Shown here: in pieces, positions 4,236 to 52,107 of the stretch
Position numbering within the stretch: the stretch's first letter is position 1
Layout: each line of letters starts with the position of its first letter
Assembly (NCBI GenBank): GCA_965203805.1
Contig: OZ241917.1
Coordinates: 768,001 to 832,000, forward strand
Reading direction: 5' to 3'
Length of the DNA stretch: 64,000 bases
Source: Candidatus Latescibacterota bacterium
GTDB taxonomy: Bacteria > Latescibacterota > UBA2968 > GCA-2709665
Notes under the pieces: model-generated
What the model was told of the DNA's origin: nothing
Database searches by the model: none
The model's input: the letters and a program-made list of their open reading frames with translations, nothing else
Program-made: the position numbers and the translations under genes

Positions 4236-4411
4236 CCGAAAAATGGGATTGTCAGGAGATCAGATTTTCCTTATTATTTGGTCACGCAACCAACGGGCGT
4301 CGGATTGAATATCGAACAGGCAAACCGGCACGGCCAGGCGAGTGTTGCAATTTGCAACACTTTGATAATACAGATCTTAAACGACTTTTCATCAGGGATC
4401 CTGAGATACCT

Positions 4412-36788: not shown

Positions 36789-37679
36789 ATGCGTATATCG
36801 GCAACGGGATTGACAAAAGTCTATCCGAAGGGGACCGTACCCGCGCTGGACAACGTCGACCTGGAAGTCGGACGGGGGACGTTCGGTCTGTTGGGCCCGA
36901 ACGGTGCGGGAAAAACCACGCTGATCAAGGTTCTTTCAACACAGATGGCGCCAACGGCCGGTCACGTCAGGATCGGCGCCTGGGACCTGCAGAGAAACCG
37001 TTCCGAAGTGCGGCGGCGGCTGGGTTACCTTCCCCAGCACTTCGGAGCATATCCGCAACTGACGGCGTGGGAGTTTCTGGACTATATGGACCGGCTGGCA
37101 GCCGGGCGACGTCGGACCGGGCGGAGGGCGCGGGTGCGCGATGCGCTTGAAAACGTGGGGCTGTACGACGCGCGGGACCGACGGACCGGCGCCTTTTCCG
37201 GTGGAATGATGCGACGCCTCGGGATTGCTCAGGCCATTGTCGGCGATCCGGAAATCCTGATTGTGGACGAGCCCACCGTGGGTCTCGATCCGGAAGAACG
37301 CATCCGTTTTCGTGGGATTCTCGCGCGGCTGAGTCGGGACAGGACGATCCTGATTTCCACTCATATCGTAGGCGATATTTCGAGCACCTGCGATGACCTG
37401 GCGGTGCTGAATGAAGGGCGGATTATCTACAGGGGATCGCCCGATGCCCTGGTCGCTCGCGCGAATGACAAGACCTGGCGGGTACAGGCGGACGACGCGG
37501 AGTTCGACACGATATCCCGGCGATTTCTTGTTGTGACGGTCGCAGTGGACGGCGGACGAATGGACCTCCGGTTCGTGGGCGACGGCCAGCCGCCCGCCCA
37601 CGCCGAACCGGTACCGCCAAACCTCGAAGACGCATACGTGTATTTTATGGGCAGGGAGAGTCAGGAAAAGGCAGCCTAG
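36789..37679 (+). CDS. ABC transporter ATP-binding protein
   Basis: [35 protein letters not shown]. Confidence 0.95.
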   Translation: MRISATGLTKVYPKGTVPALDNVDLEVGRGTFGLLGPNGAGKTTLIKVLSTQMAPTAGHVRIGAWDLQRNRSEVRRRLGYLPQHFGAYPQLTAWEFLDYMDRLAAGRRRTGRRARVRDALENVGLYDARDRRTGAFSGGMMRRLGIAQAIVGDPEILIVDEPTVGLDPEERIRFRGILARLSRDRTILISTHIVGDISSTCDDLAVLNEGRIIYRGSPDALVARANDKTWRVQADDAEFDTISRRFLVVTVAVDGGRMDLRFVGDGQPPAHAEPVPPNLEDAYVYFMGRESQEKAA

Positions 37680-37682
37680 GCC

Positions 37683-40600
37683 ATGGAAACGGTTTATACC
37701 GTATTGTCGGTCGCAAGATACGAGCGCAAGATGCTGATGCGGACGATCCGATTCCGGATCCTGGGCGGAATCGGCGTGCTCATTCCCGTTGCTCTGGGCG
37801 TCGGCCTGGCGATCGCGGAATCCAGAGGCATCGCATTCGAGTCTGTCAGCGGCATCGGCGCCTATATGCCCTTTTTCGTCTACAGTCTGCTGCAGACCGT
37901 CGTGATCGCGTTTATCGTTGGAGATTTCCGCGCCTCGGACGAGCGCGCCGGAATCTACGAAGTGGTTGCGGCCCGGCCGCTTTCTACGGCCGAACTGGTC
38001 ATGGGCAAATACCTGGGGGTCCTGGGGGCGCTGATTACGCTGAGCCTGGTCGTTCTGGTGCTCAGCCTGGCAGTGCAGGCGGCCAAGATCAGCGTTACCG
38101 GCGCGCCGTTTGCGATCCGACCTTATCTGACGTACCTGCTGCTGCTGAACCTCCCCGGGCTGGTCTATATGTCCGCTCTTACGTTTTTTTTCGGGGCGGT
38201 ATTTCGCCGGCAGGCCGCAGTGACCGTGCTGACCATCGCTTACGTCCTTATCGTTCTGCTGTTTCTTGGAAGGCGATACGGCGGTATCTACGATTTCGGC
38301 GCATTCTTCGCCCCGGTGTTCTACTCGGATATGCTCGGCCTCGGCGATATCCGGCGGGTGGTGGAGATCCGGGGCTTCTACACGTTTCTTGCCCTGTTTT
38401 TCTTTGGTTTGTCTATAGACCGGTATCCGCGGCTTCCTCAGTCCCGGGCCTGGCGCAGATTCGGTCGATGCCTGACCGCCGGCGGTTTCGTCGCCGCGGT
38501 GTGCCTGTACGCGTATATGGAAAGACGGGACTCGTCAGACCTCGCCTACCGGATGGCGCAACTGGAAGTCCAGGAAGGAATCGCCGGTCAGCCAATGTCG
38601 GCCGTTACGCATTATGCGCTCGACCTGGACCTCGCGAATGGCCGTACGCCACTGCGGGGCAGGGCGGTTCTCAGCGTTTCGAACCCTCACCCCGTAACGC
38701 TCGACACCCTCGTTTTCAGTCTCAACCCCGGGTTGGAATTGCAATCGGTGAATGCAGTTGCGGAGAAGGACGTCGATATCAGCTGGCAGCGTGAGTATTC
38801 TGTCGTGAGAATCGCGCGTCCGCTTAAGCCCGACAGTCTGGTGACGTTGGCGTTCGTTTACGACGGCTCGATCGACCTCAGCGGATTCGATCTGAGGCGA
38901 CATCCGGAAGCAAGACGCCTGCAGAAGCGGCGAACGGGGCCGGGAAGGAAAGGGGACCTGACCGCCTGGATCCGCCGGAACTCCGTATTCCTGCCGCCAC
39001 GCAGCAGGTGGTATCCCTCGCCGGGCGTGGACTACGGTCATCAGGATGGCCGCCCCCAGTCCTTCGCCACCGCAGATCTGGATATTGCGCTTCCCGCGGG
39101 ACTGGAAGTCGTGACCCAGGGTGTGCCGGTGGGCCGGAAGAAAGAGGGCGGCCGCGAGACTCATACTTGGAAAGTGGAACGCCCCGTACCCGTTCTTTCG
39201 CTCAACGCGGGCGTGTACCATGTCTTTCAGGCCGAAATCCACAATATCCAATGCGCCATATACGTACATCCGGCCCACGCCAGGCAGGTTACCTTCTTCC
39301 ACGACGCGAGGGACGACGCATTGAAAACGCTGGGCGAGATCCTGGATAGCGTTGAACAGGAAACCAGCCTGGCCTATCCGTACCAACGCCTGTCGGTTGT
39401 GGAGGTGCCATTCCAGGTACAGTGGTATTACGACGGATGGGAGGAGGCTGGCGGACTGGTGCAGCCCGGCGTGCTGATGCTGGAAGAGGACGTCCTGATG
39501 CGGCTGAATCTGCAACGCCGTCTGAAGTGGATGCAGCGGCGACAGCGGCGTAACGACGACCCTGCCAGAATCAAGCGGGACCTGCTGGTCAGGACGGTGC
39601 TGAACACGTTTCTCGCGCGGGAATCGACTCAAAGCGGCATCTACAGGAGTCCGGTGGCGCAACTCTGGTCGTTCAACCGGGGATTCGAAGGCGAACACTA
39701 TTCCCTGCTCAAACGCGGCATGCCAGTCTATATGCAGCAGAATCTCGGGACCACAATGCAACAGAGCTTCTACTCGAGGCGGGGACGGTTTCGAGGCCGG
39801 TTCCGGCGGAACAGGAGCGCGCGCGGCGTTTCCTGGGATACCGTAACGGCCAGGATGCGGCAGCGTTCTTTTGCGGAACTCGACCCGACTGCCGACGCGG
39901 AACTCTACCGGGCGGTCGTCGACGCCAAGGGCGCCTCCATGTTCGGAATGATGCAGGCCGTGGTGGGCGAAGATGCATTCAGAGACGTGGTCAGCGGATT
40001 CGAGGAGGCGAGCCGGCACGCGGGAGTCGACTTTGCGTCGTTTGAGCGCGCGGCTGTCGGCGATTCGTCGAGGCAGGCGGAACGGCCCAGCCTGAATCGA
40101 CTCGTCCGGGACTGGCTTCACGGCACCCAGGTTCCGGGCTACACCCTGACAAGGGCAAAAGCATATAAGGTGGACGACGGATGGGGCATGATGACGTATC
40201 AGGTCATCGTGCGTATCCGGAACGGCGAGCCGGGGCGCGGATTTGTCCAGATTCGAGCCATGGGGACCGAAGACGAGGCTGTCAAGGGCGTTGAGATCGA
40301 GGGCGGACAGGAGGTTGAGGTGGGACTGATCCTCTGGGAAAGGCCTTTGAGGATAAGCGTCGAGCCGTTCTTTGCTCGCAACCGCCGGGTCCTGATGGCG
40401 CCGTTACGCATACCCGAGCAACCAATGGAAGGATCGGCCGCGACCTATGTAAGGGAGGTCGCGCCGGACGAGACCGGATTGACCGAGATTATTGTGGACA
40501 ACGATGACGAAGGCTTCGAAATGCCGGTCCGCAGGGTGCGGCGCTATCTCCGTCCGCAGTTGAAAGGCGACAACTGGCAGGAACGCCAGATGCCGTTCTC

Positions 40601-41054
40601 TTTCGGCAGGTACGAAAACAACTACAGGTGGAAGAAACCGGGCGACGGCGCGCAACCGGCCGTCTGGACGGCCCGATTACCGCACAGCGGGGATTACGAC
40701 GTCTACTACTATTTCCTTCATCCCAGGTTCTCCAGGCGCATGCGTATGGCGTCGGAATTCAGTCTGGCCGTCTGTTACGGCGACGAGGTGGATACGCTGG
40801 CGGTCGAATCGAACAACCTGAAGGCCGGCTGGAACGTCTTGGGACGATACCGGTTCGAGGGCGGAGAACTGGCCCGGGTCGAGTTGTCCGACCGCGCCAA
40901 CGGCCGCCTTTACGCCGACGCGGTGCGCTGGCGATACGTGGATCCCGACCATCCGGAAGAGGTGTACGAAGAGGATCTGCCGACCTGGATTTTCGGTCAC
41001 GGCGGCCGGGGCGGTCGAGGCGGCGGCGGATCGCGGCGTGGGAGAAGCTGGTAA
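37683..41054 (+). CDS. ABC-2-type permease fused to an M1-aminopeptidase-like domain and a C-terminal golvesin/CBM-like beta-sandwich
   Basis: About 7 N-terminal TM segments with ARPLS..ELVMGK; HYALDL...FSLNPGL...WYP...YPYQRLSVVEVP...AKG M1-like scaffold; IIVDNDDEGF...GDYDVY...GWNVLG...ADAVRW. Confidence 0.75.
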   Translation: METVYTVLSVARYERKMLMRTIRFRILGGIGVLIPVALGVGLAIAESRGIAFESVSGIGAYMPFFVYSLLQTVVIAFIVGDFRASDERAGIYEVVAARPLSTAELVMGKYLGVLGALITLSLVVLVLSLAVQAAKISVTGAPFAIRPYLTYLLLLNLPGLVYMSALTFFFGAVFRRQAAVTVLTIAYVLIVLLFLGRRYGGIYDFGAFFAPVFYSDMLGLGDIRRVVEIRGFYTFLALFFFGLSIDRYPRLPQSRAWRRFGRCLTAGGFVAAVCLYAYMERRDSSDLAYRMAQLEVQEGIAGQPMSAVTHYALDLDLANGRTPLRGRAVLSVSNPHPVTLDTLVFSLNPGLELQSVNAVAEKDVDISWQREYSVVRIARPLKPDSLVTLAFVYDGSIDLSGFDLRRHPEARRLQKRRTGPGRKGDLTAWIRRNSVFLPPRSRWYPSPGVDYGHQDGRPQSFATADLDIALPAGLEVVTQGVPVGRKKEGGRETHTWKVERPVPVLSLNAGVYHVFQAEIHNIQCAIYVHPAHARQVTFFHDARDDALKTLGEILDSVEQETSLAYPYQRLSVVEVPFQVQWYYDGWEEAGGLVQPGVLMLEEDVLMRLNLQRRLKWMQRRQRRNDDPARIKRDLLVRTVLNTFLARESTQSGIYRSPVAQLWSFNRGFEGEHYSLLKRGMPVYMQQNLGTTMQQSFYSRRGRFRGRFRRNRSARGVSWDTVTARMRQRSFAELDPTADAELYRAVVDAKGASMFGMMQAVVGEDAFRDVVSGFEEASRHAGVDFASFERAAVGDSSRQAERPSLNRLVRDWLHGTQVPGYTLTRAKAYKVDDGWGMMTYQVIVRIRNGEPGRGFVQIRAMGTEDEAVKGVEIEGGQEVEVGLILWERPLRISVEPFFARNRRVLMAPLRIPEQPMEGSAATYVREVAPDETGLTEIIVDNDDEGFEMPVRRVRRYLRPQLKGDNWQERQMPFSFGRYENNYRWKKPGDGAQPAVWTARLPHSGDYDVYYYFLHPRFSRRMRMASEFSLAVCYGDEVDTLAVESNNLKAGWNVLGRYRFEGGELARVELSDRANGRLYADAVRWRYVDPDHPEEVYEEDLPTWIFGHGGRGGRGGGGSRRGRSW

Positions 41055-41098
41055 ACCGTTGGACAACGTCAGACGATAACCCTTTTGCGAGGTGCAAT

Positions 41099-42175
41099 TT
41101 GAACAGGCGATTCCTGAGCGATTACTGCATTGCATTCACGGCTGTTGTCGTTGTAGCCGGCTGCGGCGGGCAAACCGAGCAGCGGTCCGTGGACCTGACC
41201 GTCCCGGTCACCGTCCAGGCCGTTCGCCTGGACACCATGGAGGCGACTGTGGCCGCCACCGGTACGCTCCGGCCCTCCCGGGAGGCCCGCATACAGACCG
41301 AGGTCGAAGGTATTCTTCAATATGTCGCCCGGGGCGTCGGAGGACGACCGAGCGAAGGAATGCGGGTCACCCGGAACCAGGAGATTGCCCGGCTGGTGAA
41401 CAAGGAGCTTGTCGTAAACGCACGCATGGAATCCCGGCAACTCGCACGCGCCACCGCGAAACGAACGCTGCGCGAGCAGGAGGTACTCGTTGAACGAAAG
41501 CTGGGCACGGAGAGAGACCTGGACGAAGCGCGCCGCGCCCTCGCCGAGGCCGAATCCAATTACGAAGACGCGCTCGTTCAGATCGCCAAGACGACAATCA
41601 GGACGCCAATCAGCGGTTTTCTGACGGGATTGGCCGACATTACAGAGGGTACGCTGGTGGAAGCCCGAACGACCATCGCTACCGTGATGGATTACAGACA
41701 GGTGCTCGTCGATCTGAAGATTCCAAACGCCTATATCGCATCCGTTTCACCCGGCCAGGTCGTGCGAGTGGAAAACTATGCATTGCCCGGAAGGCGGTTT
41801 CTGGGAACCATCAGGGTCGTGGACCCGGCCATCGATCCGGCCACGCGTACCTTCCGGGTCGTTGGGGCCGTGAAGAATCCGAACCTGATGTTGCGTCCCG
41901 GCATGTTTGTGAAAGCCGAGATTGTCACGGAGTCTCACGAAGACGCGGTGGTGATCCCTCGCCGCTTCGTCCTGACCCGCCGGAATCGCAAAGTGGTGTT
42001 CGTGGAAGCGGAGGGGAGGGCTCAGATGCGCGACGTGGAACTGGGTTTGGAGGGCCCCGAGCAGGTCGAGATTCTGGAAGGGCTTGAAGCGGGCGAGCGC
42101 CTCATTACCAGCAATTACGAGACGCTGCGCCCCCGTACCCGTGTGCGTGTAACCGGCGTGGGCGTGCAGCAATGA
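41099..42175 (+). CDS. RND periplasmic adaptor (MFP) lipoprotein
   Basis: TTG start with GAGGT RBS; lipobox VAGC; IRTPISG, PAIDPATRTF, LRPGMF, VEILEGL. Confidence 0.92.
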   Translation: MNRRFLSDYCIAFTAVVVVAGCGGQTEQRSVDLTVPVTVQAVRLDTMEATVAATGTLRPSREARIQTEVEGILQYVARGVGGRPSEGMRVTRNQEIARLVNKELVVNARMESRQLARATAKRTLREQEVLVERKLGTERDLDEARRALAEAESNYEDALVQIAKTTIRTPISGFLTGLADITEGTLVEARTTIATVMDYRQVLVDLKIPNAYIASVSPGQVVRVENYALPGRRFLGTIRVVDPAIDPATRTFRVVGAVKNPNLMLRPGMFVKAEIVTESHEDAVVIPRRFVLTRRNRKVVFVEAEGRAQMRDVELGLEGPEQVEILEGLEAGERLITSNYETLRPRTRVRVTGVGVQQ

Positions 42176-42284: not shown

Positions 42285-42333
42285 CCCTCTGGGGCCCAGG
42301 GACTGCGTGTGGGCCTTCCGGAGGGTTTTTTTT
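42285..42333 (+). terminator. Terminator-like hairpin inside the transporter cluster
   Basis: ccctctggggccca / tgggccttccggaggg followed by T8. Confidence 0.6.
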
Positions 42334-42408
42334 GATCTTGATCCGTCCCTTCTCGGGGACGTCAATTCGAGTATATGCAAGCGGATCTCATTACTAAGGG
42401 CCGATACC

Positions 42409-45400
42409 ATGCCATTGCCCGAATTTTCGACGAAATATCCGGTAACGGTTGCCATGGCAACGCTGGCCGTCGCGCTCCTGGGCTGGATTTCGCTGGAGCG
42501 GCTGGAAGTGGACCTGCTTCCCGACCTGCGTTCTCCCGTGATTACCGTGGACCTGCGATTTCCGGGCAAAACCCCCAGGGAGATGGAGGAACGATATGCG
42601 CGTCGTCTGGAAGGGGATATCGGCACGGTACGCCACGTCAAACGCGTTCACTCCGTGTCCCGTTCCGGGCAGGCCGTGGTGATCGCGGAATTTGAATGGG
42701 ATGCGGACATGGATTTCGCGCTGCTCGATGTGCAGAAGAAAGTGGCGCGGTACGCTTCGGATCCCGATATCACGAGTCTGGACGTCACACAGGAAGACCC
42801 CCAGGCGTTGCCGGTGATGCGTCTGGCCGTCTCGGGAGCGGACTGGCAGGATCCTGATGAACTGCTGGGCAACGCGGAAACCGTCATCCGGCCCAAACTC
42901 GAGGGGTTGTCCGGGGTGGCTTCGGTGGAAATCGAGGGGGGAGCCGAAAAAGAAATCCGGATCACACTGGATTCCTATCTCCTTCAAGCATTCGGAGTCA
43001 CTTCGGAGACGGTCGTCTCGCGGATACGTGAAGCCAATTCGGATGTCTCCGGCGGAACGTTGAAAGACGGACAACGTACCTATCTGGTCAAAGGCCTGGG
43101 ACGTCTGACCGACTTGGCAGACGTGAACAACCTGGTTGTCGGTGAGCGCCGCGGCGAATCTTCGAATGGCGGGGAAGACGCCTCGACCCAGCGCGTGCCC
43201 GTCACGGTAAGCGATGTGGGTACGGTAGGCCTGCTATATAAGGAGAGGGAAACCATCGTGCGCCTCGACGGCTTGGAGTGCGTCGGGCTTTCCGTTTACA
43301 AGGAAGCCGGCGCGAATACCTCGTCGGTGGTCAACGGGGTTCTCGGGGAACTGGAAAGACTCGAGGCCGATCTGACCGGCATCCGGTTTACGGTGGTGGA
43401 GAACCAGGCCCGCTTCGTCGAAAACGCGGTAAGTGAAGTGGAAGAGGCGGCCGTTCTTGGCGCCTTGCTTGCAGTGGGCGTGTTGCTGGCTGCGCTCCGG
43501 CAGTGGACCGCCACGCTGGTGATCGGACTCGCCATACCGATTTCCGTTCTGGCCACGTTCACGCTGATGTATTTCCAGGGGCTGACGCTGAACGTCATGA
43601 CCCTGGGCGGCCTGGCGCTGGGCGCCGGCATGCTGGTGGACAACGCCATTGTCGTGATTGAGAACATCTACCGGCACCTCGAGAGGGGAGAAACGGCCGC
43701 AGAGGCCTCCGTCAGAGGCGCCAGTGAGGTCGGGGTCGCGATTCTGGCGTCCACGTTGACCACGGTGTCCGTGTTTCTGCCCATTGTCTACCTCCACGGG
43801 TTGGCGGGCGAACTCTTCAAGGAACAGGCCTGGACGGTCGCGTTCTCGCTGGTTTCGTCTCTCGCGGTGGCGATGACCGTGGTGCCCATGCTGACCGCCC
43901 GGCTCTTCAGGCGGTATCCGCGACGGTCCGCAGGGATCGCGGGGGCGCGGTCCTTCAGGCGTTTTCTAAGCCGTTCACTCAACCATAAGGGACGTACGAT
44001 GGCGGTGCTCGCGGCCTGCCTGCTGGCCGCCTTCTATATGGCAAGGTCCATCCATACGTCTTTTATCCCCACGGAAGACGAGGGTGTGCTCCACGTGGAT
44101 CTCGCGCTGCCGGAGGGCACGCGACTCGAGTCGACAGACAGGGTGGCGAGGCGAGTTGCCGCCATTACCCAGGCGGTTGCCGGAGAGGAAGCGCGCCACA
44201 TCTACCTGCGGGTTGGAACCGATCCGAACCGGTTTACCGCGGTGGGAGAACCCACCGGCCCGAACAGAGCCGAACTGACGGTCGTGCTGGGCCGGCAGGC
44301 GGACCGTCGCAGCGTCTCCGAACTCACCACGGTTCTGGATACAGCCCTCCTCGAAGTCCCTGACATTAAGGTTAATTATCGGCTTCAAAAAGCTGCATTG
44401 GAAGGACTTATACGAGGTCACACTGCGCCGGTCCAGGTCGAGGTCAGCGGTGAGAACCTGGACCTGCTTCGGGAATTGACCACAGATCTGAAGCGGCGAA
44501 TGGACGCGTTGTCCACGGTGTATAACGTGCGGACCAGCTTTCAGGACGGTCAGCCCGAGGTAGACGTGGTACTGCGACCGGATATCACCGCCGCGTTCGG
44601 GCTTACCTCACAGAATCTCGTGCGCGAACTCGAGCGCAGGCTCGGCGGCGAGGAAGCCGGAGAACTCTCCAAGGACCAACGGGCGCGAACGATCCGGGTT
44701 GGGTTCGAGGACGTGGACCTTCGGGAACTGCAGCACGCGAGAATCGACGGTCCCGACGGGGCGATGCTCACGCTGGGAGATCTCGCCGACCTGCGGGTCG
44801 TGCAGGGTCCAAGGGAAATCCTGCGGGACGGTCAGCGCAGGGTGGGGCGGGTGTCCGCCTTCCTGACCGACGGTGTGGTCTTGAGCCAGGCGGCAACGCA
44901 AATCAGGCAGGCAGTGGGACAGATGGCCATCCCGCACGGATACCAGGTGACCGTAACCGGAGAGGAACGGGAGCGGGCCGAATCATTCGGCGGCCTGCAA
45001 TTCGCCCTTCTGCTTTCGGTGGTGCTCGTCTATATGGTCATGGCTTCGCTCTTCGAGTCTCTGCTTCATCCGTTTACCGTCATGCTGACGGTGCCGCTGG
45101 CGGGCATCGGCGTGGTATTCGCATTCTGGAGCCTGGGAGAAGCGTTCGGCGTGATGGCGTTCATCGGCGCGATCATGCTGGGCGGTATCGCCGTTAACGA
45201 CGCCATCATTCTGGTGGACCACATCAACCAGTTGCGGCGCGAGGCGGGCGACGTGCGACAGGCCGTACTCCAGGCCGCGCAGGATCGGCTGCGTCCGATC
45301 CTGATGACCAGCGCCACGACCATTCTGGCGCTGTTGCCCATGGCGGTGGGCGTCGGCGAAGGCGCGCGCCTGCGGGCCCCGATGGCGGTGGCCGTTATCG

Positions 45401-45492
45401 GCGGTCTGGTCACGTCCACATTGATGACCCTTGTGGTGATTCCCGTCGTTTACGAACTGATTGAAGGGCTCAGAAGGAGGAGGGCGGCGTGA
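42409..45492 (+). CDS. RND permease (AcrB/SwrC-like)
   Basis: DLLPD, GMLVDNAIVVIENI, ASLFES..HP, RLRPILMT, IGGL. Confidence 0.95.
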   Translation: MPLPEFSTKYPVTVAMATLAVALLGWISLERLEVDLLPDLRSPVITVDLRFPGKTPREMEERYARRLEGDIGTVRHVKRVHSVSRSGQAVVIAEFEWDADMDFALLDVQKKVARYASDPDITSLDVTQEDPQALPVMRLAVSGADWQDPDELLGNAETVIRPKLEGLSGVASVEIEGGAEKEIRITLDSYLLQAFGVTSETVVSRIREANSDVSGGTLKDGQRTYLVKGLGRLTDLADVNNLVVGERRGESSNGGEDASTQRVPVTVSDVGTVGLLYKERETIVRLDGLECVGLSVYKEAGANTSSVVNGVLGELERLEADLTGIRFTVVENQARFVENAVSEVEEAAVLGALLAVGVLLAALRQWTATLVIGLAIPISVLATFTLMYFQGLTLNVMTLGGLALGAGMLVDNAIVVIENIYRHLERGETAAEASVRGASEVGVAILASTLTTVSVFLPIVYLHGLAGELFKEQAWTVAFSLVSSLAVAMTVVPMLTARLFRRYPRRSAGIAGARSFRRFLSRSLNHKGRTMAVLAACLLAAFYMARSIHTSFIPTEDEGVLHVDLALPEGTRLESTDRVARRVAAITQAVAGEEARHIYLRVGTDPNRFTAVGEPTGPNRAELTVVLGRQADRRSVSELTTVLDTALLEVPDIKVNYRLQKAALEGLIRGHTAPVQVEVSGENLDLLRELTTDLKRRMDALSTVYNVRTSFQDGQPEVDVVLRPDITAAFGLTSQNLVRELERRLGGEEAGELSKDQRARTIRVGFEDVDLRELQHARIDGPDGAMLTLGDLADLRVVQGPREILRDGQRRVGRVSAFLTDGVVLSQAATQIRQAVGQMAIPHGYQVTVTGEERERAESFGGLQFALLLSVVLVYMVMASLFESLLHPFTVMLTVPLAGIGVVFAFWSLGEAFGVMAFIGAIMLGGIAVNDAIILVDHINQLRREAGDVRQAVLQAAQDRLRPILMTSATTILALLPMAVGVGEGARLRAPMAVAVIGGLVTSTLMTLVVIPVVYELIEGLRRRRAA

Positions 45493-48400
45493 TTCTCCCC
45501 GATCTTGCGGTCCGGCGGCCCGTAACGACGTCGATGTTCTTTGCCGCATTCGCCATATTGGGAGTCGTGTCGTGGACGAGGCTTCCGGTACAGCTTTTTC
45601 CGGAGTTGATCTTTCCGGAAGTGTTCGTCACGCTGTCGCTGCAGGGGGCATCTCCGGAACAGGTGGAACGAGATCTGCTGGTTCCCGCTGAAGGGGAGAT
45701 CGGCAAACTGGACGGCGTCCAGGAGATGGAGTCGTTCGCGATGGCCAACAGGGGAGGTATTCGCATATCCTACGCGCCCGACGTGGATATGAAGTTCGCC
45801 CTGCTTCAACTGCAGAGCAACCTGAACAGACTGCAGCCGACGCTGCCCGAGCGTACTCAGTCCGACGTCAGGAGGTTCGATTCGACGGATCTCAGCAGCA
45901 GCATTATGGAGCTTCACGTGCTCGCCGACTGGGACCTGAACCCGTTGCGGGAGTTCACGGAAGAAAAAATCCGGCCCGAACTGGAGTCAGTCGACGGTGT
46001 CGTCAATGTGTCCGTGTTGGGCGGACGGCGCAGCGCCGTTGAAATCGTCCTGGATCCGTTCCTGCTCGAGGCGCATGGCCTTTCGACGGGACAGGTTCGG
46101 GCACGCCTGAACAGCTATAACCGGCGGCGTGAGTACCTGGGGCGCGTATTCGACGGGAATCGGGCCTATTCGGTGAGCATTCAGGGGCAGTTTACGGACC
46201 TTCGTCAGATTCGCGATCTCGTCCTGAACGCGGACGGCACGCTCAGGCTGGGCGACGTTTCCCGGGTGGGATTCGGACTCCAGGAACAGGCCGATCGGCA
46301 CAGAGTCAATGGAAGACCGTCGGTGGGCGTCCGCATCCAGAAGGACGACGAAGCGAATCTGATCGAGGTTGCCGCGGCGGTCGAAGCCGCCATCGGCAGG
46401 CTGAATCGCGACTTCAAGAGCGCGGGTGTGGAACTGGGCGTGAGTTCCTCACAGGCGGATCTGATGACCGGAGCGCTTTCCACCCTGAAGCAGGCGGCCA
46501 TTGCCGGCGCCGTGCTCGGACTGATCGTGCTCTTTCTGTTTCTTCGGAACCTTCGTTTCGTTTCGGTCCTCCTGCTGGCCATACCGATTTCTCTCCTGAT
46601 GACCTTCAATCTGATGTACCTCGGCGGGCTGTCCGTCAACGTGCTGTCTCTGTGCGGTCTCGCCCTGGCGATGGGCATGCTTGCTGACAACGGCATCGTG
46701 GTGATGGAAAATATCTTCAAGCACTACGAGCGGGGAAAGTCGCCCGCCGACGCGGCACGGGACGGGGCGGCCGAGGTCGGGCGCGCCGTGGTTGCGGCAA
46801 CCGCAACAACCGTAACCGCATTCCTGCCGGTTCTGTTCATCGAGAGCGACGCGCGGGACCTGCTGCGGGAACTCGCGTTGTCCATGGCGTTTCCGCTGCT
46901 GGCGTCGTTGCTCGTGGCCCTGACGCTGGTTCCGGCCCTCGCCGTCCGGGCGTTGAGCCGCGGGGTCCGACAGCCTCCGGACGTTCGCGGGTTGCTCGAA
47001 CGGTATACGCTGCTGCTGAAGACTGCTCTGCGCCACCGCGCATCGGTGGTCCTGTCCGCAGGAGTGGCGCTCGCGTTGACACTCGTGTTGGCGTTCTTCT
47101 ACCTGCTGCAACAGCAGGTACGCAGGGAGGAGACACGTTTTACGGTCTACGTGAACCTTCCGGAAGGAGCCACGCTGGACGCGACGGACGAGGTCGTGAA
47201 ACAGGTGGAGGCATCCGTACGGGACGTGCCCGGTCTGGACCGGTTTACGACGTCGGTCCGTGAGGCGGAAGCCGACGTGAATGTATTGCTAGACAGACGT
47301 TCTGACCGGCCCGGCGGCATCTCGCTGGATGAAATCAAAGAGCAACTCGACGACAAACTGCAGAATGTACGGGGAGGGGTTGTCGGATACGAAGCCAGGC
47401 CCCGCGCGGGGAGGGGCGGGCGCGGGCAGGGGATCGGACAACGTCGGAGACGCAGTTCCGGAGGATTCGATCTGACCGGGGCCACGCCGAACGAACAGGT
47501 TGTGGTTCGAGGATACGACTTCACGATACTGACGATGATTGCCAATGACCTGGTTTACCGCCTCGAAGAACTGGAGGAGGTGGATGCCAACAGCGTACGC
47601 GCCGACGCCGAACGGAGTTCGCCCGAGGTGCAGGTGATACCCGATGCGGCCGCCCTGTTCGACCGGCGGCTCGGCGCACAGGAAGTGCTCGCCGCCATGG
47701 GTGACACCCGTTGGGACGGGTTTCGCACAACGGTCCCGTTCCTGCTGCCCGATGCAACCGAGGTACCCATCGAAGTGCGTACGATCGAAGAGGAGGACCG
47801 CGACCGCTACGGGCTGGCTGAATTCAGGGGTTCACGCATTCTGAACCGGGACGGGCATTACGTACCTCTGTCCGAAGTGGCGAGGGTCCGGACGGATGAG
47901 GGCCGGAGCAGCCTGTTGCGGACCGACCAGACCCGTCGGATTGTGGTTTCCTACCGGTATCCTTCGGAGATTCTGGATTCCCAGCCGCGGTTGGATCTTG
48001 CGAGACGGGTCGTGCGAACGACGCTGCAGGACATGGTTCTGCCGGAGGGGTATTCGATCGAAATCATCGAGGCGCACGAGGAGATGATCTACTATTGGAT
48101 GATGGCGGTCGCAGCTGTACTCATCTATATGATCCTGGCGTCGCTGTTTGAGTCTTTCGCCTCGCCGATCATCATTCTGTGTACGCTGCCGCCCGCGGCC
48201 ATCGGCTCCTGCTGGGCGCTGATGATGTCGGGCACGGGCCTGAGCCAGCAGGAGGGACCCATGGCGCTTCTGGGACTTATCGTCCTGCTGGGTATTGCGG
48301 TGAACAACGGCATCATCCTGATCGACGCGGTCGGCGTGCTCAGGACCCGATTCGGCTTTCGACGGGAACGCGCGGTGCTGACCGCGGCGCGGTCGCGTGT

Positions 48401-50201
48401 TCGACCCATCCTGATGACAACGGCCACGACGCTTCTGGGCGTTCTTCCACTGGCGCTCGAATACGGCGGCGATTTTGAAATCTGGCCGCCGTTCGCAATT
48501 ACCGTTCTGGGCGGGCTGTCGGTTTCCATGGTCTCCACGCTGATCCTGATTCCGGTGGTCTACATGGGACTGGATCAGATCGGCGCCTGGCTTGCCGACA
48601 TGGGGGTTATCGCCGTCACGCTGTCGCTGCTGGCGACCGCCGCGGCCGGGTATGGCGTTTATGTGCGGTACGAAAGCGTTTTCTGGGCAACGCTGTCGAT
48701 ATTGCCCATCTGGGGCGCGTGTCTGGCAGCGGTATGGACCGTCCTGAAAATACACCGCGCCCGGGTCGCGGCCCGGCGGGTATCCGGCGCCGTTCATTCC
48801 ATACAGCTGAGAAATCTTACCAAGGTCTACGGCGCGCCCGGGCGGTTTGTACGGGAGTGGGCGCGCAACGAGCGCCGGCGAGGGCGGATGATGGAAACCG
48901 GTCCGGAGCCACACGACCGCAGGGCGGTCCGTGACGCGCTCATCTGGAAGCTGCCGTTGCTCGCGCTGTTGTCGGTCTTCACGACCTATTTCGAGGACGA
49001 GATCTGGATCTATCTGCACGGGCTGGCGCTGGCATCCATGATTGCGCACGTGGGGAGATGCGTCGGAGACCTGAGAGAAAGGCAACTTCCGGCGCCGATC
49101 GCCCGCATTGGCGCCCTGCTGCTCAAAGCCGTGCTGCCATTGACGTTTGTCGGCTACGTGCACTTGCGGCTGAACCTGCTTTCTGTCACACTTGCCACGT
49201 TCGGGCTGTGGGTCGTCTATCGACTGGTGCGGTGGCTCGCCGACAGGGTACGTTCCGGGGAGATCGATCCCGATGCCTTGTCCGGACGTCTGGCGCGGCC
49301 GCGCATGTGGAGCTATCGAATGGCCTCGGCCATGCCGATCGTCGGCGTCCCCCGGCCGGAGTTTCGGGCGCTGGCGGGCGTCAACCTGGAAATCGGCAGG
49401 GGGATGTTCGGGCTACTGGGCCCCAACGGCGCCGGCAAGACCACATTGATGCGCATTCTCTGCAGGGTACTCGAACCCAGTTACGGCTCCATTCTGATCG
49501 ACGGTCGAAACGTCCTGAACAGGGGATCGATTCACGGTCTGATCGGCTACCTGCCGCAGCATTTCGGCAACTACGGACACCTTTCCGCATACGAGTATCT
49601 GGAATACCGTGCACTTCTGGAGGGTTACAAAGACCGGAAAATTCGGGACGCCCGGGTGATCGAATCCCTGGAACAGGTCAATCTGATCGAACGGAAAGAC
49701 GATCCCGTCGGCTCGTTTTCAGGCGGAATGAAGCAGCGCCTCGGCATTGCCCAGACCCTCCTGCACACCCCGCTGATCGTGGTGGTGGACGAGCCCACGG
49801 CGGGTCTCGATCCGCTGGAGCGCATCCGGTTCCGCAACCTGCTTGCCAGGTTGAGCCAGGATCGCATTGTCATTTTCTCCACGCACATCGTGGAAGATAT
49901 CTCCGGAAGCTGCAATCGTCTGGCAGTACTGGACCATGGGTGTCTTCTGTATACGGGAACACCGGAGGAAATGAGGAATCTGGCGACGGGACGGGTGTGG
50001 GACACGGTGGTATCGGAGCGGCGTTTTTCGGAGATGGAGGACAACCTTAAGCTCATTTCGCATCAGCGAACGCCCGGCGGGGTCCGGATGCGGTTCCTGT
50101 CGGAACACGCGCCGGTCGATATCGGCGCGCAGAGCGTGGACCCAACTCTGGAAGACGCGTACCTGTACCTGCTTGGCGGAGGGGAGGGACAGCCGTGCTG
50201 A
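45489..50201 (+). CDS. RND permease fused to a C-terminal ABC ATPase domain
   Basis: RND motifs (GMLADNGIVVMEN, ASLFES, RVRPILMT) followed in frame by extra TM segments and [27 protein letters not shown]. Confidence 0.92.
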   Translation: MILPDLAVRRPVTTSMFFAAFAILGVVSWTRLPVQLFPELIFPEVFVTLSLQGASPEQVERDLLVPAEGEIGKLDGVQEMESFAMANRGGIRISYAPDVDMKFALLQLQSNLNRLQPTLPERTQSDVRRFDSTDLSSSIMELHVLADWDLNPLREFTEEKIRPELESVDGVVNVSVLGGRRSAVEIVLDPFLLEAHGLSTGQVRARLNSYNRRREYLGRVFDGNRAYSVSIQGQFTDLRQIRDLVLNADGTLRLGDVSRVGFGLQEQADRHRVNGRPSVGVRIQKDDEANLIEVAAAVEAAIGRLNRDFKSAGVELGVSSSQADLMTGALSTLKQAAIAGAVLGLIVLFLFLRNLRFVSVLLLAIPISLLMTFNLMYLGGLSVNVLSLCGLALAMGMLADNGIVVMENIFKHYERGKSPADAARDGAAEVGRAVVAATATTVTAFLPVLFIESDARDLLRELALSMAFPLLASLLVALTLVPALAVRALSRGVRQPPDVRGLLERYTLLLKTALRHRASVVLSAGVALALTLVLAFFYLLQQQVRREETRFTVYVNLPEGATLDATDEVVKQVEASVRDVPGLDRFTTSVREAEADVNVLLDRRSDRPGGISLDEIKEQLDDKLQNVRGGVVGYEARPRAGRGGRGQGIGQRRRRSSGGFDLTGATPNEQVVVRGYDFTILTMIANDLVYRLEELEEVDANSVRADAERSSPEVQVIPDAAALFDRRLGAQEVLAAMGDTRWDGFRTTVPFLLPDATEVPIEVRTIEEEDRDRYGLAEFRGSRILNRDGHYVPLSEVARVRTDEGRSSLLRTDQTRRIVVSYRYPSEILDSQPRLDLARRVVRTTLQDMVLPEGYSIEIIEAHEEMIYYWMMAVAAVLIYMILASLFESFASPIIILCTLPPAAIGSCWALMMSGTGLSQQEGPMALLGLIVLLGIAVNNGIILIDAVGVLRTRFGFRRERAVLTAARSRVRPILMTTATTLLGVLPLALEYGGDFEIWPPFAITVLGGLSVSMVSTLILIPVVYMGLDQIGAWLADMGVIAVTLSLLATAAAGYGVYVRYESVFWATLSILPIWGACLAAVWTVLKIHRARVAARRVSGAVHSIQLRNLTKVYGAPGRFVREWARNERRRGRMMETGPEPHDRRAVRDALIWKLPLLALLSVFTTYFEDEIWIYLHGLALASMIAHVGRCVGDLRERQLPAPIARIGALLLKAVLPLTFVGYVHLRLNLLSVTLATFGLWVVYRLVRWLADRVRSGEIDPDALSGRLARPRMWSYRMASAMPIVGVPRPEFRALAGVNLEIGRGMFGLLGPNGAGKTTLMRILCRVLEPSYGSILIDGRNVLNRGSIHGLIGYLPQHFGNYGHLSAYEYLEYRALLEGYKDRKIRDARVIESLEQVNLIERKDDPVGSFSGGMKQRLGIAQTLLHTPLIVVVDEPTAGLDPLERIRFRNLLARLSQDRIVIFSTHIVEDISGSCNRLAVLDHGCLLYTGTPEEMRNLATGRVWDTVVSERRFSEMEDNLKLISHQRTPGGVRMRFLSEHAPVDIGAQSVDPTLEDAYLYLLGGGEGQPC

Positions 50202-50917
50202 ACTGGCGGGAATTGCTGCTGACCACGTGGCGGCTTTATCGGCTGAGCTGCAGGATCATATTCCACAGGAAATTGATGTTCATGGGCATCGGCCTTCTCG
50301 TCTATTACGCCGCCATGTACGCGTTCGCGGTGTGGCGCCCCGACGAGGGGTTCGGCGTATCGCAGGCGCTCAACGTCCTGGTTGAAATCCCCGGTATTGC
50401 GCTTGCCATTTATCTGACGATGGATCTCGTTGCGGGCGAACGAGACCGGAATACACTTGAAACCCTGTTCAGCACAACCTCTACCCATTACAAGATCTGG
50501 ACGATCCGGATGGTGGGGGTGTATCTGGTTCTGGCGGGAACCCTCATGGGAATGACGGTGGTCGCGTATTTCGTCTTCGCCGAACTTCCGATTTTCCGGG
50601 GCGGGTTGAATGCTTTTCTGCCGGCATGTCTTGCCGCCGGACTCACGTTCTACTTCTCCGTTCTCTGCCGAAGCGGCAACGCGGCCGCAATGCTCGCGAC
50701 CGGGGTGATGGTCCTGGCTCTGGTCGTTTCGAAGTCCCTGCCCGATTCTCCCTTCGTGCTCTTTCTGGACACGTTCGATCCACCGGTGGGCATGGAAGAC
50801 ACGCTTTGGGGCGACCGGGTCCTGCTGAATCGTCTGGCCGTCGTGCTGCTGTCGGGCTTGCTGCTTTTTATCGGTCTACGCAGAATGGAAGCAAGGGAAC
50901 GGCTGGTATCTTCGTAG
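50195..50917 (+). CDS. ABC-2-type permease
   Basis: About 6 TM segments; GERDRNTLETLF coupling-helix motif; overlaps the stop of the RND-ABC gene. Confidence 0.8.
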   Translation: MLNWRELLLTTWRLYRLSCRIIFHRKLMFMGIGLLVYYAAMYAFAVWRPDEGFGVSQALNVLVEIPGIALAIYLTMDLVAGERDRNTLETLFSTTSTHYKIWTIRMVGVYLVLAGTLMGMTVVAYFVFAELPIFRGGLNAFLPACLAAGLTFYFSVLCRSGNAAAMLATGVMVLALVVSKSLPDSPFVLFLDTFDPPVGMEDTLWGDRVLLNRLAVVLLSGLLLFIGLRRMEARERLVSS

Positions 50918-50964: not shown

Positions 50965-52107
50965 CTATTCTTTTCTTACGTCCAGCCGGACTTTTCGGGG
51001 CGCTACGTTCACGACCGCCAGATCGGTCCCATGCCTGATCGACTCGACGCCGAACTCGAACGTCCTGCGCCCGATCCCGACGTAGCCGGCATCGATTACG
51101 AGCCGAAAGGCGTCTTTGGGCGCGAGCAGAAGGGCGCGTCGGGGACCCTTCACAGTGACGTCTACGGCGGCTGGTCTCACGCTCTCCAGTGCATATCCGC
51201 CCGGCAGATTCTCCACGCCGACCGCCACTTCATACGTCGCTTCCTGGACCGACGCGCCCGGCACCAGAAAGACCCATGCGCCGAACGCCAGCGCGAGGGA
51301 GAGCACGCCTTCCGAGAGATGCCGCGCCAGCCTGCCCCGACCGGTCTTGGGCGCACTGCGGACCGCATGCTGCGCGTGCTCCTGCAACCTGGAAAGCAGT
51401 TCGTCGGGGTCGTTAACGATTTCCAGTCGACCCCGACGCGCGACGGCGATGGTGCCGCGCTCCTCGGAAACGACCAGGCAGAGGGCGTCGCTGCGTTCTG
51501 TCAGCCCGAGCGCCGCGGCGTGGCGAGTTCCTCCCGGCCCGAGTTCGCTGCGGTTTTCCGACAGCGGCAGATGGACGGCAAAACGCTCCAGCCGGTCTTC
51601 CCTCATCACCAGCGCCCCGTCGTGACCGGCCGAAGTCGTGCCGAACAGGCTGTCGATGAGCTCCTCGCTGATCGTGGCATGCAGTACAATCCCGCCCTGC
51701 AGGAGCCGGTCGAGCGGTTCCCGTCCGGGCAGGACCACCAGGCCGCCCCGCCGATTCGCCGCCAGTTGATGCATTGCGCGAACCAGAACCGCCAGACTCC
51801 CGCCGTGGGGCCGAGATGCCCTTCTGCCCAGGCCCAGTGCGGCAATCTGCTCGAAGAGCCTCCGCAGGTCGTCCTGGAAGACAACAACCAGCAGCACGAC
51901 GAGGACGGCAAAGAACCCCTGGAATATCCACGCCGTCAGCTGCAGTTCGAACTGGCGCGCCAGGAGATAGAAAGCGCCCAGAAACGCAAGCCCGACCAGC
52001 GCCATGCGGGCGTGCATCCTCCGGGTCCAGGCCAACAGCCCCCAGAACAGCGCGCCCACCACCGCTATGTCCACGAAATCTGAAAATGTGACCTCAAGCA
52101 GCGTCAT
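50965..52107 (-). CDS. Diadenylate cyclase (CdaA/DisA_N) fused to a YbbR-like domain
   Basis: 3 TM segments, FQDDLRR, HDGA, GTRHAAALG, VVSEERG; then a TM segment and VENLPGG...VTVKGP. Confidence 0.9.
   Translation of the reverse strand: MTLLEVTFSDFVDIAVVGALFWGLLAWTRRMHARMALVGLAFLGAFYLLARQFELQLTAWIFQGFFAVLVVLLVVVFQDDLRRLFEQIAALGLGRRASRPHGGSLAVLVRAMHQLAANRRGGLVVLPGREPLDRLLQGGIVLHATISEELIDSLFGTTSAGHDGALVMREDRLERFAVHLPLSENRSELGPGGTRHAAALGLTERSDALCLVVSEERGTIAVARRGRLEIVNDPDELLSRLQEHAQHAVRSAPKTGRGRLARHLSEGVLSLALAFGAWVFLVPGASVQEATYEVAVGVENLPGGYALESVRPAAVDVTVKGPRRALLLAPKDAFRLVIDAGYVGIGRRTFEFGVESIRHGTDLAVVNVAPRKVRLDVRKE

Follow-up and report, generated by a model that had tools for sequence, protein, structure and literature searches.

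RND pumps are textbook secondary transporters, driven by protons, and ABC pumps are textbook primary transporters, driven by ATP. A conserved protein in which an RND permease and an ABC ATPase are covalently joined, such as the one encoded in a 64,000-nucleotide stretch of a Candidatus Latescibacterota genome (contig OZ241917.1; hereafter the window), raises the question of whether ATP can feed, gate or power an RND cycle.

Organization of the RND-ABC fusion protein

The open reading frame at 45489-50201 (+) is, in the ORF analysis of the window, a single unbroken frame encoding a protein of 1570 aa. This protein comprises, in order, an RND permease, two transmembrane (TM) helices, a strand holding β1 and the A-loop of an ABC ATPase, four hydrophobic helices and a catalytically complete ABC-2-type nucleotide-binding domain (NBD). 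The permease domain (RND2, residues 1-1028; 45489..48572, +) gives a full-length, 12-TM match to PF00873, with two large periplasmic loops, over residues 5-1027 (profile positions 3-1019 of 1021, E 2.3e-179). It is followed by two extra TM helices (residues 1036-1058 and 1064-1086; 48594..48746, +), seen as hydropathy peaks of 1.73-1.89 and in the family-mean profile, which contain no Lys or Arg and are predicted to bring the chain back to the cytoplasm. Next come the detached β1 strand and A-loop, SIQLRNLTKVYG (residues 1104-1115, including Lys1112 and Tyr1114; 48798..48833, +), and an insert of 179 aa (residues 1115-1293; 48831..49367, +), recognized from hydropathy, the family-mean profile and the charge pattern. 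The NBD restarts at β2, residue 1294, and continues to the end of its C-terminal domain (residues 1294-1570; 49368..50198, +), as seen with PF00005 (E 2.6e-26, above cut-off) and a profile of free NBDs. The fusion gene overlaps at its start with the stop codon of the preceding gene, which encodes an unfused RND permease (RND1), and its own stop codon overlaps the start of a gene for a 240-aa membrane protein.

The initial annotation of this DNA had described an ABC ATPase split by a membrane-spanning insertion. Additional to that description are the two TM helices preceding β1, the nature of the whole protein as an RND-ABC fusion, and the second NBD and second, unfused RND that this conserved operon also encodes.

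Conservation of the fusion

The RND-ABC fusion is represented by hundreds of database entries, and the best 120 database matches, from many sources, all have the same PF00873+PF00005 architecture in an uninterrupted frame of ~1570 aa (mostly ~1550-1620 aa). Within the phylum, the module was found in open frames of ~1570-1600 aa in 84 of 168 genomes, and in 34 of the 52 high-quality ones, being single-copy in the window's own genome. Among the 88 matches listed across the 84 genomes, 87 lie in frames without internal stops, the exception being a weak second match in genome G121. The fusion is also present in records labelled Gemmatimonadota, Acidobacteriota, KSB1, Calditrichota and Bacteroidales (including Muribaculaceae and Bacteroidaceae), and the Bacteroidales loci are single-frame in five cases out of five. 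Since the same frame is conserved across the database, the genomes and the Bacteroidales loci, we consider as refuted, with a probability that is practically nil, the explanation that a frameshift or an assembly error fused separate RND, membrane-protein and NBD genes, in favour of which we found no evidence. Many bacteria of the environment and of the gut share this unusual split RND-ABC design.

Three short database entries resemble unfused forms (P0123, 501 aa; P0150, 526 aa; P0203, 539 aa). In all five genome loci akin to P0150, the match to the RND and that to the C-terminal part fall in one frame (5/5), with read-through of the junction in the three loci inspected, so that the short entries are probably fragments or shortened gene calls. 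The only names given to members of the family are automatic ones, of the type "efflux RND transporter permease subunit". The ESM Atlas returned no entry for the window protein, and for the homologue P0066 only PF00005+PF00873 fusion clusters with automatic names and no model. In the openly searchable literature, including text of a 2021 Chem Rev review, no description of an RND-ABC fusion or of a TM insertion in an NBD was found.

The ATPase domain and its detached first strand

The best PDB and NCBIfam matches of the fused NBD are ABC-2/ABCA-type NBDs (DrrA, GldA, NosF, ABCA1/4/7; PDB 4yer, 1vpl), with which it has the catalytic motifs in common, namely Walker A (K1317), Q1357, the signature (S1411-G-G), Walker B (D1434-E1435) and H1466, residues that are invariant across 46 sequences. 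The window also encodes a free ABC-2-type NBD of 296 aa (36789..37679, +; PF00005 E 6.6e-31), with a contiguous β1/A-loop and its P-loop at 36894. This paralogue shares 45% identity with the fused NBD over 277 aa, in an alignment that begins directly after the A-loop, and is matched by the GldA model from profile position 1. A profile built from 49 free NBDs aligns its positions 16-289 (of 293) with residues 1292-1565 of the fusion (353 bits), and because this match begins at position 16, the contiguous fused NBD is short of only the first 15 positions; its PDB and GldA matches likewise begin at chain or profile positions ~16-17. A contiguous β1 with an A-loop aromatic, about 22-34 residues before Walker A, is absent from the fused NBD.

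Free NBD relatives are 45-53% identical to the fused NBD and have the same C-terminal domain, and the fusion is adjoined by an ABC-2-like permease gene. They carry β1 and the A-loop 4-6 residues before β2 (~17 in the outlier P0208), whereas in the fusion these elements are 179 residues apart, across four hydrophobic helices, and the NBD unit, unlike its free relatives, is covalently joined to an RND.

The strand itself was located with a β1/A-loop matrix of 13 columns, derived from 47 free NBD relatives. The best site in the 1570-aa protein is at residues 1104-1116 (23.9 bits), followed by a runner-up site scoring 0.57, and none of 500 shuffles attained the same score (highest, 12.9). The match is thus not a chance one, as the site is unique and no shuffle reaches its score. 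The Walker A Gly lies 207 residues after the start of the motif and 197 after Tyr1114. The strings quoted in the initial annotation for the free and the fused NBD are both present in the window, and in the fused NBD LTKVY lies at residues 1110-1114 and ALAGVN at 1294, leaving exactly 179 residues between them (1115-1293, window 48831-49367). Among 148 long homologues, 132 retain the strand at a distance of 150-320 aa on the N-terminal side of Walker A, invariably with the Lys (132/132) and an aromatic (132/132; Tyr in 127 and Phe in 5), and Lys1112 is invariant in the family alignment A1.

It could be argued that the distal NLTKVYG is an evolutionary relic, the intervening region a membrane-anchored linker, and that the NBD works without β1 or by means of Tyr1276, a second, nearly invariant aromatic 18 residues before β2, which in principle could serve as A-loop. 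Both Tyr1276 and the PxIGxxRPxF element before β2 are highly conserved, with a similar element in fusions that have a short insert (see below), and hmmsearch with the free-NBD profile leaves the distal strand unjoined to the domain, giving one domain only, without recovering the short β1 match. In BLASTP of the free against the fused NBD, the β1 match did come up, but its HSP was far from significant (E 89). A relic would drift, yet the Lys and the Tyr/Phe are kept in every one of the 132 homologues, and the alternating hydrophobic β pattern is intact among sequences only ~40% identical; the aromatic of the free relatives, moreover, stands 4-6 residues before β2, not 18. We therefore find a relic very unlikely.

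The insert between β1 and β2

The insert begins with an Arg-rich conserved flank (GAPGRFxREWxRxxRR), continues with four helices in two hairpins (Ha 1150-1168, Hb 1172-1192, Hc 1204-1226 and Hd 1230-1250), and ends with a second conserved flank (GxVDPE..GRL..Y1276..P1283-IG), the two presumably cytosolic flanks having ~35 and 43 residues. Its Kyte-Doolittle hydropathy (17-aa window) has four peaks, starting at 1150, 1172, 1207 and 1228, with values of 1.56-1.76, and the same four appear in the family-mean hydropathy of 46 sequences. In the 132 homologues the insert has 163-261 residues (median 180), and a crude count of its hydrophobic segments gives four in 58 of them, three in 56, two in 15, five in two and one in a single case. 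The earlier estimate of about four hydrophobic helices holds for the window protein and the family mean, but the crude count arrives at four in only 58/132; the position assigned to the bundle, directly after the A-loop Tyr and between β1 and β2, is supported by sequence statistics and family-wide conservation. Since Lys and Arg are abundant in the flanks (10 and 8) and rare in the two 3-residue turns (0 and 1; residues 1169-1171 and 1227-1229), the charge pattern fits an insert with both ends in the cytoplasm. This positive-inside pattern is seen in the window protein and in the family. Hc and Hd contain two Lys/Arg each.

A Pfam search of the insert at E ≤ 10 identified no family, and the only candidate, PhoR, was rejected with an E-value of 0.022, below cut-off. 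We also rejected the possibility that the insert, or the six-helix region, is a disguised ABC-2 permease similar to the downstream 240-aa protein (hhalign probability 0.2% local, 0.1% global). In a duplication test, hhalign comparisons among the three helical hairpins gave 58%, 2% and 70% in local mode and 6%, 0.7% and 7% in global mode, a signal that probably reflects composition.

The regulatory insert of CFTR NBD1 lies directly after the A-loop aromatic, between β1 and β2, at the same topological site, with no homology. It is ~32 residues long, disordered, soluble and phospho-regulated, whereas the present insert has 179 residues, is conserved and is made mostly of hydrophobic helices, rather than being a short, disordered, phosphorylatable loop. 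The CFTR insert corresponds to residues 405-436 (PMC3776845). Six other RND-NBD fusions of 1389-1445 aa (P0167, P0168, P0170, P0175, P0192 and P0218) belong to the same NBD subfamily, have β1 apart from β2, and display a similar G-x-RP-x-x-[FI]-x-AL element before β2, but their inserts have only 28-54 aa, with no segment that is hydrophobic, and they show no clear sign of the two extra TM helices. With inserts at this site in these six fusions and in CFTR NBD1, the NBD evidently tolerates insertions there.

From the sequence data we infer the packing of β1, the membrane insertion of the helices and all contacts. The detached strand would fold back beside β2, completing the NBD sheet, with Tyr1114 supplying adenine stacking, and the four-helix insert would anchor the tip of the β1-β2 hairpin in the inner membrane, next to the RND transmembrane domain. 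The long flanks and four helices that separate β1 from β2 mean that geometry does not force pairing in cis, and the β1/A-loop of one protomer could instead complete the NBD of a neighbour (or of the partner of the paralogous free NBD), creating a defined dimer within the RND oligomer. Such a swap in trans would suit NBDs that must dimerise attached to RNDs that trimerise, and the cluster does contain a paralogous NBD. However, the free NBD owns its β1, closure of a hairpin in cis is the simplest fold, and the short-insert relatives would favour cis, so that we regard the swap as improbable and retain folding in cis as the preferred arrangement.

The two RND permeases

RND1 (42307..45492, +; PF00873 E 9.7e-226), whose true start is probably near 42409, and RND2 form a tandem pair behind a single adaptor gene, as in MdtABC/MuxABC. 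The genes of two adjacent RND paralogues and one adaptor are conserved together, in an MdtBC-type arrangement. Among solved chains, MdtB (9lyq_B, E 7.8e-86) is the closest to the fused RND domain, whose top NCBIfam equivalog models are those of MdtC and MdtB, with scores far below the cut-offs (363.6 vs 1774 for MdtC, and 332.5 vs 1584); NF033617 (515.9, cut-off 1250) is not reached either.

The proton-relay motifs are "DN" in TM4 and "VNN" in TM10 for RND2 (the latter in 14/14 aligned sequences), and "DN" and "VND" for RND1 (conserved in 14/15 orthologues). Compared with MdtB, whose positions we equate with AcrB numbering, both proteins have "DN" for the "DD" of TM4 and "N" for the relay Lys of TM10. 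RND2 is without the AcrB-type TM10 Lys and also without the TM10 acid that unfused RND1 retains, while the TM11 Arg is present. The AcrB-type triad of TM4 Asp-Asp and TM10 Lys, as the relay residues are defined in PMC8277102, is accordingly not found in RND2. As both RNDs depart from this triad, the loss of the Lys is not particular to the fused one. Other RND families use other relays. As in MdtABC, the two paralogues differ in their relay residues. The MdtB2C1 complex (PMC7015380) provides a precedent for an RND heterotrimer. Unlike in MdtABC, the second RND here bears six extra helices and an ABC ATPase, and the TM4 DD and TM10 K of MdtB are replaced as described.

Gene neighbourhood

The free NBD gene is followed by that of a 1123-aa protein (37683..41054, +) with an N-terminal ABC-2-like permease (ABC2_membrane_3, E 1.4e-6, below cut-off), a Golvesin_C domain (E 1.9e-15) and a stretch with weak resemblance to M1 peptidases. 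Then comes the gene for an RND-type periplasmic adaptor (MFP; 41135..42175, +), assigned by a HlyD_D23 match and by TIGR01730, which covers ORF residues 194-508 (E 1.1e-55, above cut-off). Since the listed ORF (40628-42175) runs into the preceding gene, the start given for the adaptor is an approximation. Downstream of the fusion, the 240-aa membrane protein (perm240; 50195..50917, +) is a probable distant ABC-2 permease, judging from Pfam evidence that for the window protein is below threshold (ABC2_membrane_2, E 4.9e-4; 19.9 bits against PF12679, cut-off 27.2) and from its orthologues, 6 of 17 of which match an ABC-2 model at E ≤ 0.01 (best 3.9e-6). The perm240 profile retrieved no PDB chain at E ≤ 10.

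The order MFP, RND1, RND2::NBD, perm240 is common to every locus examined that has upstream coverage, and perm240 lies directly downstream of the fusion gene in every locus examined. The longer synteny, beginning with the 1123-aa permease gene (ABC2_M1) in the same relative position, was seen in 14/14 close loci and 12/12 distant loci, as well as in L020, one of two usable loci (with L019) from an alignment-based scan with the patterns GPNGAGKTT and VVDEPTAGL that otherwise returned mostly generic NBDs. Four Bacteroidales loci have MFP, RND1, RND2::NBD and perm240, and a fifth, truncated locus has RND2::NBD-perm240. The paralogous NBD, with its 45% identity, belongs to the same conserved cluster as the fusion. 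In a gap of the distant locus L111 we noted by eye an OMF-like gene of 516 aa.

Possible modes of energization

Overall, we favour, with a probability of about 0.6, a composite tripartite pump whose ABC module would be anchored in the membrane next to an RND heteromer. This multi-gene machine would include the adaptor, RND1, RND2::NBD, the small putative ABC-2 permease, and the paralogous NBD with the large ABC-2/M1-like permease, and, in distant relatives, possibly an outer-membrane factor. For its mechanism, the leading candidate, at slightly less than even odds, is that the NBD joins the putative ABC-2 permease encoded downstream in an exporter or flippase powered by ATP. Held against an MdtBC-like RND1/RND2 heteromer, this unit would pass substrate from the cytoplasm or the inner leaflet to the RND/adaptor/outer-membrane conduit. 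MacAB-TolC differs in having no RND, and MacB is of a separate type VII fold, with an uninterrupted NBD that is N-terminal to a 4-TM permease. What it has in common with the proposed pump is ATP-driven transport coupled to an adaptor and an outer-membrane duct (PMC8277102).

A regulatory role for the NBD, in which ATP binding gates or assembles the RND complex with no ABC-permease transport, would be in line with the weak ABC-2 match of the downstream permease and with the conserved C-terminal domain that the NBD has in common with its free relatives. Yet no variation is seen in the Walker B Glu, the H-loop His, the Q-loop or the signature, as one would expect of a hydrolysing transport ATPase, and the translationally coupled permease gene is never missing, so we give this role a low probability.

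Returning to the composite pump, a stronger variant, which we advance tentatively and consider rather unlikely, is that ATP binding and hydrolysis are relayed via the insert to RND2, making the heteromer part ATP-driven and part proton-driven (via RND1); RND2 would be the protomer that has lost the charged TM10 relay residues. The initial annotation had likewise proposed that ATP binding is mechanically coupled, in a direct way, to a membrane module beside the RND; the putative ABC-2 permease conserved downstream would give the NBD a more ordinary role. In its most specific form, which we hold to be a little less likely again, the pump would be a hybrid-energised tripartite RND1(2):RND2-NBD(1) assembly, where insert-relayed ATP drives or gates the relay-deficient RND2 and RND1 is proton-fed, and the single tethered NBD would pair with the free paralogous NBD of the operon, solving the mismatch between three-fold and two-fold symmetry.

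If true, this hybrid would define a class of efflux machine of its own, in which primary-active RND transport and an ABC sheet threaded through the membrane would both be seen for the first time. The family indicates that the β1-β2 hairpin of an NBD tolerates very large insertions, and a sheet broken by membrane helices precisely at the nucleotide-sensing A-loop would be a natural construct in which to study how motions of the NBD are transmitted to the membrane.

Architecture and conservation of the RND–ABC fusion

The fusion protein (RND2::NBD) is encoded in a single open frame of 1570 residues on the forward strand (45489-50201), where a full-length RND permease domain (Pfam PF00873, residues 5-1027, profile positions 3-1019 of 1021, E 2.3e-179) precedes an ABC ATPase domain (PF00005, residues 1297-1438, E 2.6e-26). 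Two strongly hydrophobic helices (residues about 1036-1058 and 1064-1086) lie between these domains, ahead of the detached first strand of the nucleotide-binding domain (NBD). The catalytic motifs of the NBD are intact: an alignment of 46 homologues, taken from the best database hits, shows no variation at Walker A Lys1317, Q-loop Gln1357, signature Ser1411-Gly-Gly, Walker B Asp1434-Glu1435 or H-loop His1466; a rival view would assign the NBD a purely regulatory role. A Gly/Arg-rich low-complexity stretch (…ARPRAGRGGRGQGIGQRRRRSSGG…; window ~47340-47470, residues ~618-660) lies within the second periplasmic region of the fused RND, and its poly-Gly patch is also present in the family consensus. 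Long Arg/Pro/Gly-rich antisense frames over the fusion gene, such as 47832-49163 (reverse strand, 443 aa), most likely arise spuriously from the 62% G+C content of the coding strand.

A word-indexed homologue search with residues 1040-1570 as query gave 120 best hits, all with both PF00873 and PF00005 and mostly of ~1550-1620 aa, from sources including Latescibacterota, Gemmatimonadota, Acidobacteriota, KSB1 and Calditrichota. The insert module occurs in 84 of the 168 genomes of the window's phylum (34 of the 52 of high quality), nearly always within an open frame of ~1570-1600 aa, and as a single copy in the window's own 5.87-Mb genome. This conservation rules out that the fusion is an assembly artefact and, judged by sequence comparison, the RND–ABC fusion with its split NBD is real and conserved. 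Public databases already list the proteins, with automatic names such as 'efflux RND transporter permease subunit' and 'ATP-binding cassette domain-containing protein'; JGI records bear the double label AcrB/ABC ATPase, and in the ESM Atlas the PF00005 and PF00873 pair recurs in several clusters, which have 64-143 members. A search of the open-access literature gave no paper on an RND–ABC fusion or on a membrane insertion inside an NBD.

The detached β1 strand

The initial annotation had proposed an ABC ATPase split just after the A-loop Tyr by ~179 residues, and the two protein strings it quoted are both exact in the window translations. The free NBD, an unfused ABC-2-type ATPase at 36.8 kb, reads ...ISATGLTKVY-PKGTVP-ALDNVDLEV...GPNGAGKTT, and in the fused NBD LTKVY occupies residues 1110-1114 and ALAGVN starts at 1294, which leaves 179 residues in between. 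By sequence the fused NBD groups with ABC-2/ABCA-like NBDs, but it lacks their contiguous β1. As a reference set we used 49 free relatives of ~290 aa from an all-against-library search; their HMM aligned fusion residues 1292-1565 to profile positions 16-289 of 293 (353 bits) and, since it aligned only from position 16, all that the contiguous domain lacks by this measure is its initial 15 positions, corresponding exactly to β1 and the A-loop. Alignments to the GldA model and to NBDs of known structure (4yer, 1vpl, NosF) also start at chain or profile position ~16-17.

With a 13-column matrix of β1 and the A-loop, built from 47 of the 49 free NBDs, the top site in the 1570-aa protein was 1104-1116 (SIQLRNLTKVYGA), which scored 23.9 bits, against 0.57 for the runner-up and a maximum of 12.9 in 500 shuffles. 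Because hmmsearch with the free-NBD profile reported one long domain and did not recover the distal strand as its own, and BLASTP matched the strand only in an insignificant HSP (E 89), it is the matrix scan and the conservation that support its probable identity as β1. The alignment of 46 homologues shows no change at the Lys of LTKVY, and at least 90% of the sequences keep each of L, T, Y and G. Among 148 long homologues (at least 1300 aa), 132 have their best β1 site (score at least 9) at 150-320 residues before Walker A, with the conserved Lys in every case and, as the A-loop residue, Tyr in 127 and Phe in 5. The rival that the strand is a relic, with Tyr1276 of the insert serving as A-loop, is disfavoured by these data, as a relic would not hold an invariant Lys and a Tyr/Phe-only position at 40% overall identity. 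We favour a functional strand, which would come back, pair with β2 and supply the A-loop Tyr; a strand swap in trans is a rival reading.

Six other long proteins are RND–NBD fusions with a same-site insert of 28-54 aa devoid of hydrophobic segments, and 10 of the 148 fit neither class; among these are four divergent fusions whose motif scores are weak, as well as long ABC proteins that are unrelated. The short-insert fusions (database proteins P0167, P0168, P0170, P0175, P0192 and P0218; 1389-1445 aa) form a second clade, possibly an evolutionary intermediate toward the four-helix insert.

The probable membrane insert

The insert (median 180 aa, range 163-261 in the 132 homologues) had been thought to hold about four hydrophobic helices, and four Kyte-Doolittle peaks of 1.56-1.76 (17-aa windows from 1150, 1172, 1207 and 1228) bear this out. 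The same four peaks, and the two helices preceding β1, appear in the family-mean hydropathy. The helices, as predicted from hydropathy, form two hairpins with the 3-residue turns EDE and RLN. Lys and Arg are abundant in the long flanks (10 and 8) and scarce in the middle loop (2) and turns (0 and 1), a pattern shared by the family means and compatible with an even number of membrane crossings that leaves both ends in the cytoplasm, where the NBD must be. Two observations weaken this picture: the second hairpin has two Lys/Arg in each helix, and a crude hydrophobic-segment counter, applied to the 132 homologues, gave four segments in only 58, against three in 56 and two in 15.

Both flanks are conserved, with GAPGRFxREWxRxxRR right behind the A-loop and GxVDPE...GRL...Tyr1276...Pro1283-Ile-Gly ahead of β2, which suggests a structured neck and not a floppy tether; Trp1153 is invariant. 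The insert matched no Pfam family. A relationship to the downstream 240-aa permease was considered and rejected, as the two share no homology.

Gene cluster

The conserved cluster, on the forward strand, starts with the free NBD (36789-37679), a paralogue of the fused NBD (45% identical). It is followed by a 1123-aa protein (37683-41054) that begins like an ABC-2 permease, weakly resembles M1 peptidases over a further stretch (E 0.0025) and contains Golvesin_C (E 1.9e-15), which no NCBIfam model matches and which is kept beside the pump genes in all 27 covered loci (14 close, the Bacteroidales locus L020 and 12 distant). The RND adaptor frame (40628-42175) lies between this protein and the unfused permease RND1 (42307-45492), whose stop overlaps the fusion start. 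The adaptor frame overlaps the preceding gene by ~430 nt and matches its family from residue 194, and orthologue alignments of RND1 start at residues 31-37; both listed starts are probably too early, that of RND1 probably being the ATG near 42409. The start of the 240-aa membrane protein overlaps the fusion stop. This protein matches ABC-2 only below Pfam cut-offs (E<=0.01 in 6 of 17 orthologues, best 3.9e-6) and had no relative in the PDB; it is at best a distant ABC-2 permease.

The order from the 1123-aa protein through adaptor, RND1 and fusion to the 240-aa protein is kept in 14/14 close loci, in L020 and in 12/12 distant loci, drawn from the phylum search with identities down to 23-45%. 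The free NBD lies upstream in four loci, those whose retrieved region extended that far. Adaptor, RND1, fusion and 240-aa protein occur together in four loci from Bacteroidales, in records that bear the names Muribaculaceae, Bacteroidaceae and Bacteroidales; in a fifth locus, whose upstream part is cut off, the fusion and the 240-aa protein are present. The distant locus L111 has an extra 516-aa gene (2923-4473) between large permease and adaptor, where L112-L116, L121 and L122 have ~1.5-kb gaps; with its signal-peptide-like N-terminus and TolC-like coiled sequence, its product looks by eye like an outer-membrane factor. The cluster in the window's lineage has no counterpart of it. Directly downstream of the cluster lies a convergent gene (50965-52107, reverse strand) whose product matches the diadenylate cyclase CdaA model TIGR00159 (E 1.5e-42, 145.7 bits, under the 188.8-bit cut-off); a CdaA-like gene is directly downstream in 13 of 14 close relatives and about 2.3 kb farther in L011.

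The two RND paralogues

The solved chain nearest to the fused RND domain is MdtB, whose positions we take to correspond to the AcrB numbering of the proton relay. Its TM4 Asp-Asp and TM10 Lys are Asp-Asn and Asn in both window RNDs, which retain the TM11 Arg. At the next TM10 position RND1 has Asp ('VND' in 14/15 orthologues) and the fused RND2 (45489-48572) has Asn ('VNN' in 14/14 aligned sequences); with 'DN' in TM4, RND2 thus keeps a single membrane carboxylate. The RND part belongs to PF00873 but lacks the AcrB triad and scores below all NCBIfam cut-offs. The AcrB relay is D407/D408/K940 with R971 (PMC8277102). The conserved asymmetry between RND1 and RND2 is a lead, not proof, for lost proton coupling in RND2, because other RND families use other relays.

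Proposed mechanism

If the returned strand pairs with β2, the tip of the β1-β2 hairpin would be anchored in the membrane by the two helical hairpins, beside the RND transmembrane domain. Since an ABC-2-like permease gene adjoins each NBD, the most economical function, to which we give a probability of slightly under one half, would be an ATP-driven ABC-2 exporter or flippase held against an RND1/RND2 heteromer and feeding substrate into the RND-adaptor-outer-membrane route. A bolder variant, which we hold to be rather unlikely, would have the insert transmit nucleotide-dependent motion of the A-loop hairpin to RND2, the protomer deficient in the relay. Tandem RND paralogues have a precedent as a heterotrimer in MdtB2C1 (PMC7015380). 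We speculate that the tethered and free NBDs pair in an RND1(2):RND2(1) trimer, which would reconcile three-fold with two-fold symmetry.

MacAB-TolC is likewise an ATP-driven tripartite pump, but has another fold and no RND. CFTR NBD1 carries a disordered regulatory insert of ~32 residues (405-436; PMC3776845). This insert is neither hydrophobic nor homologous to that of the fusion. Presumably the two occupy the same topological site, in which case the site would be permissive.
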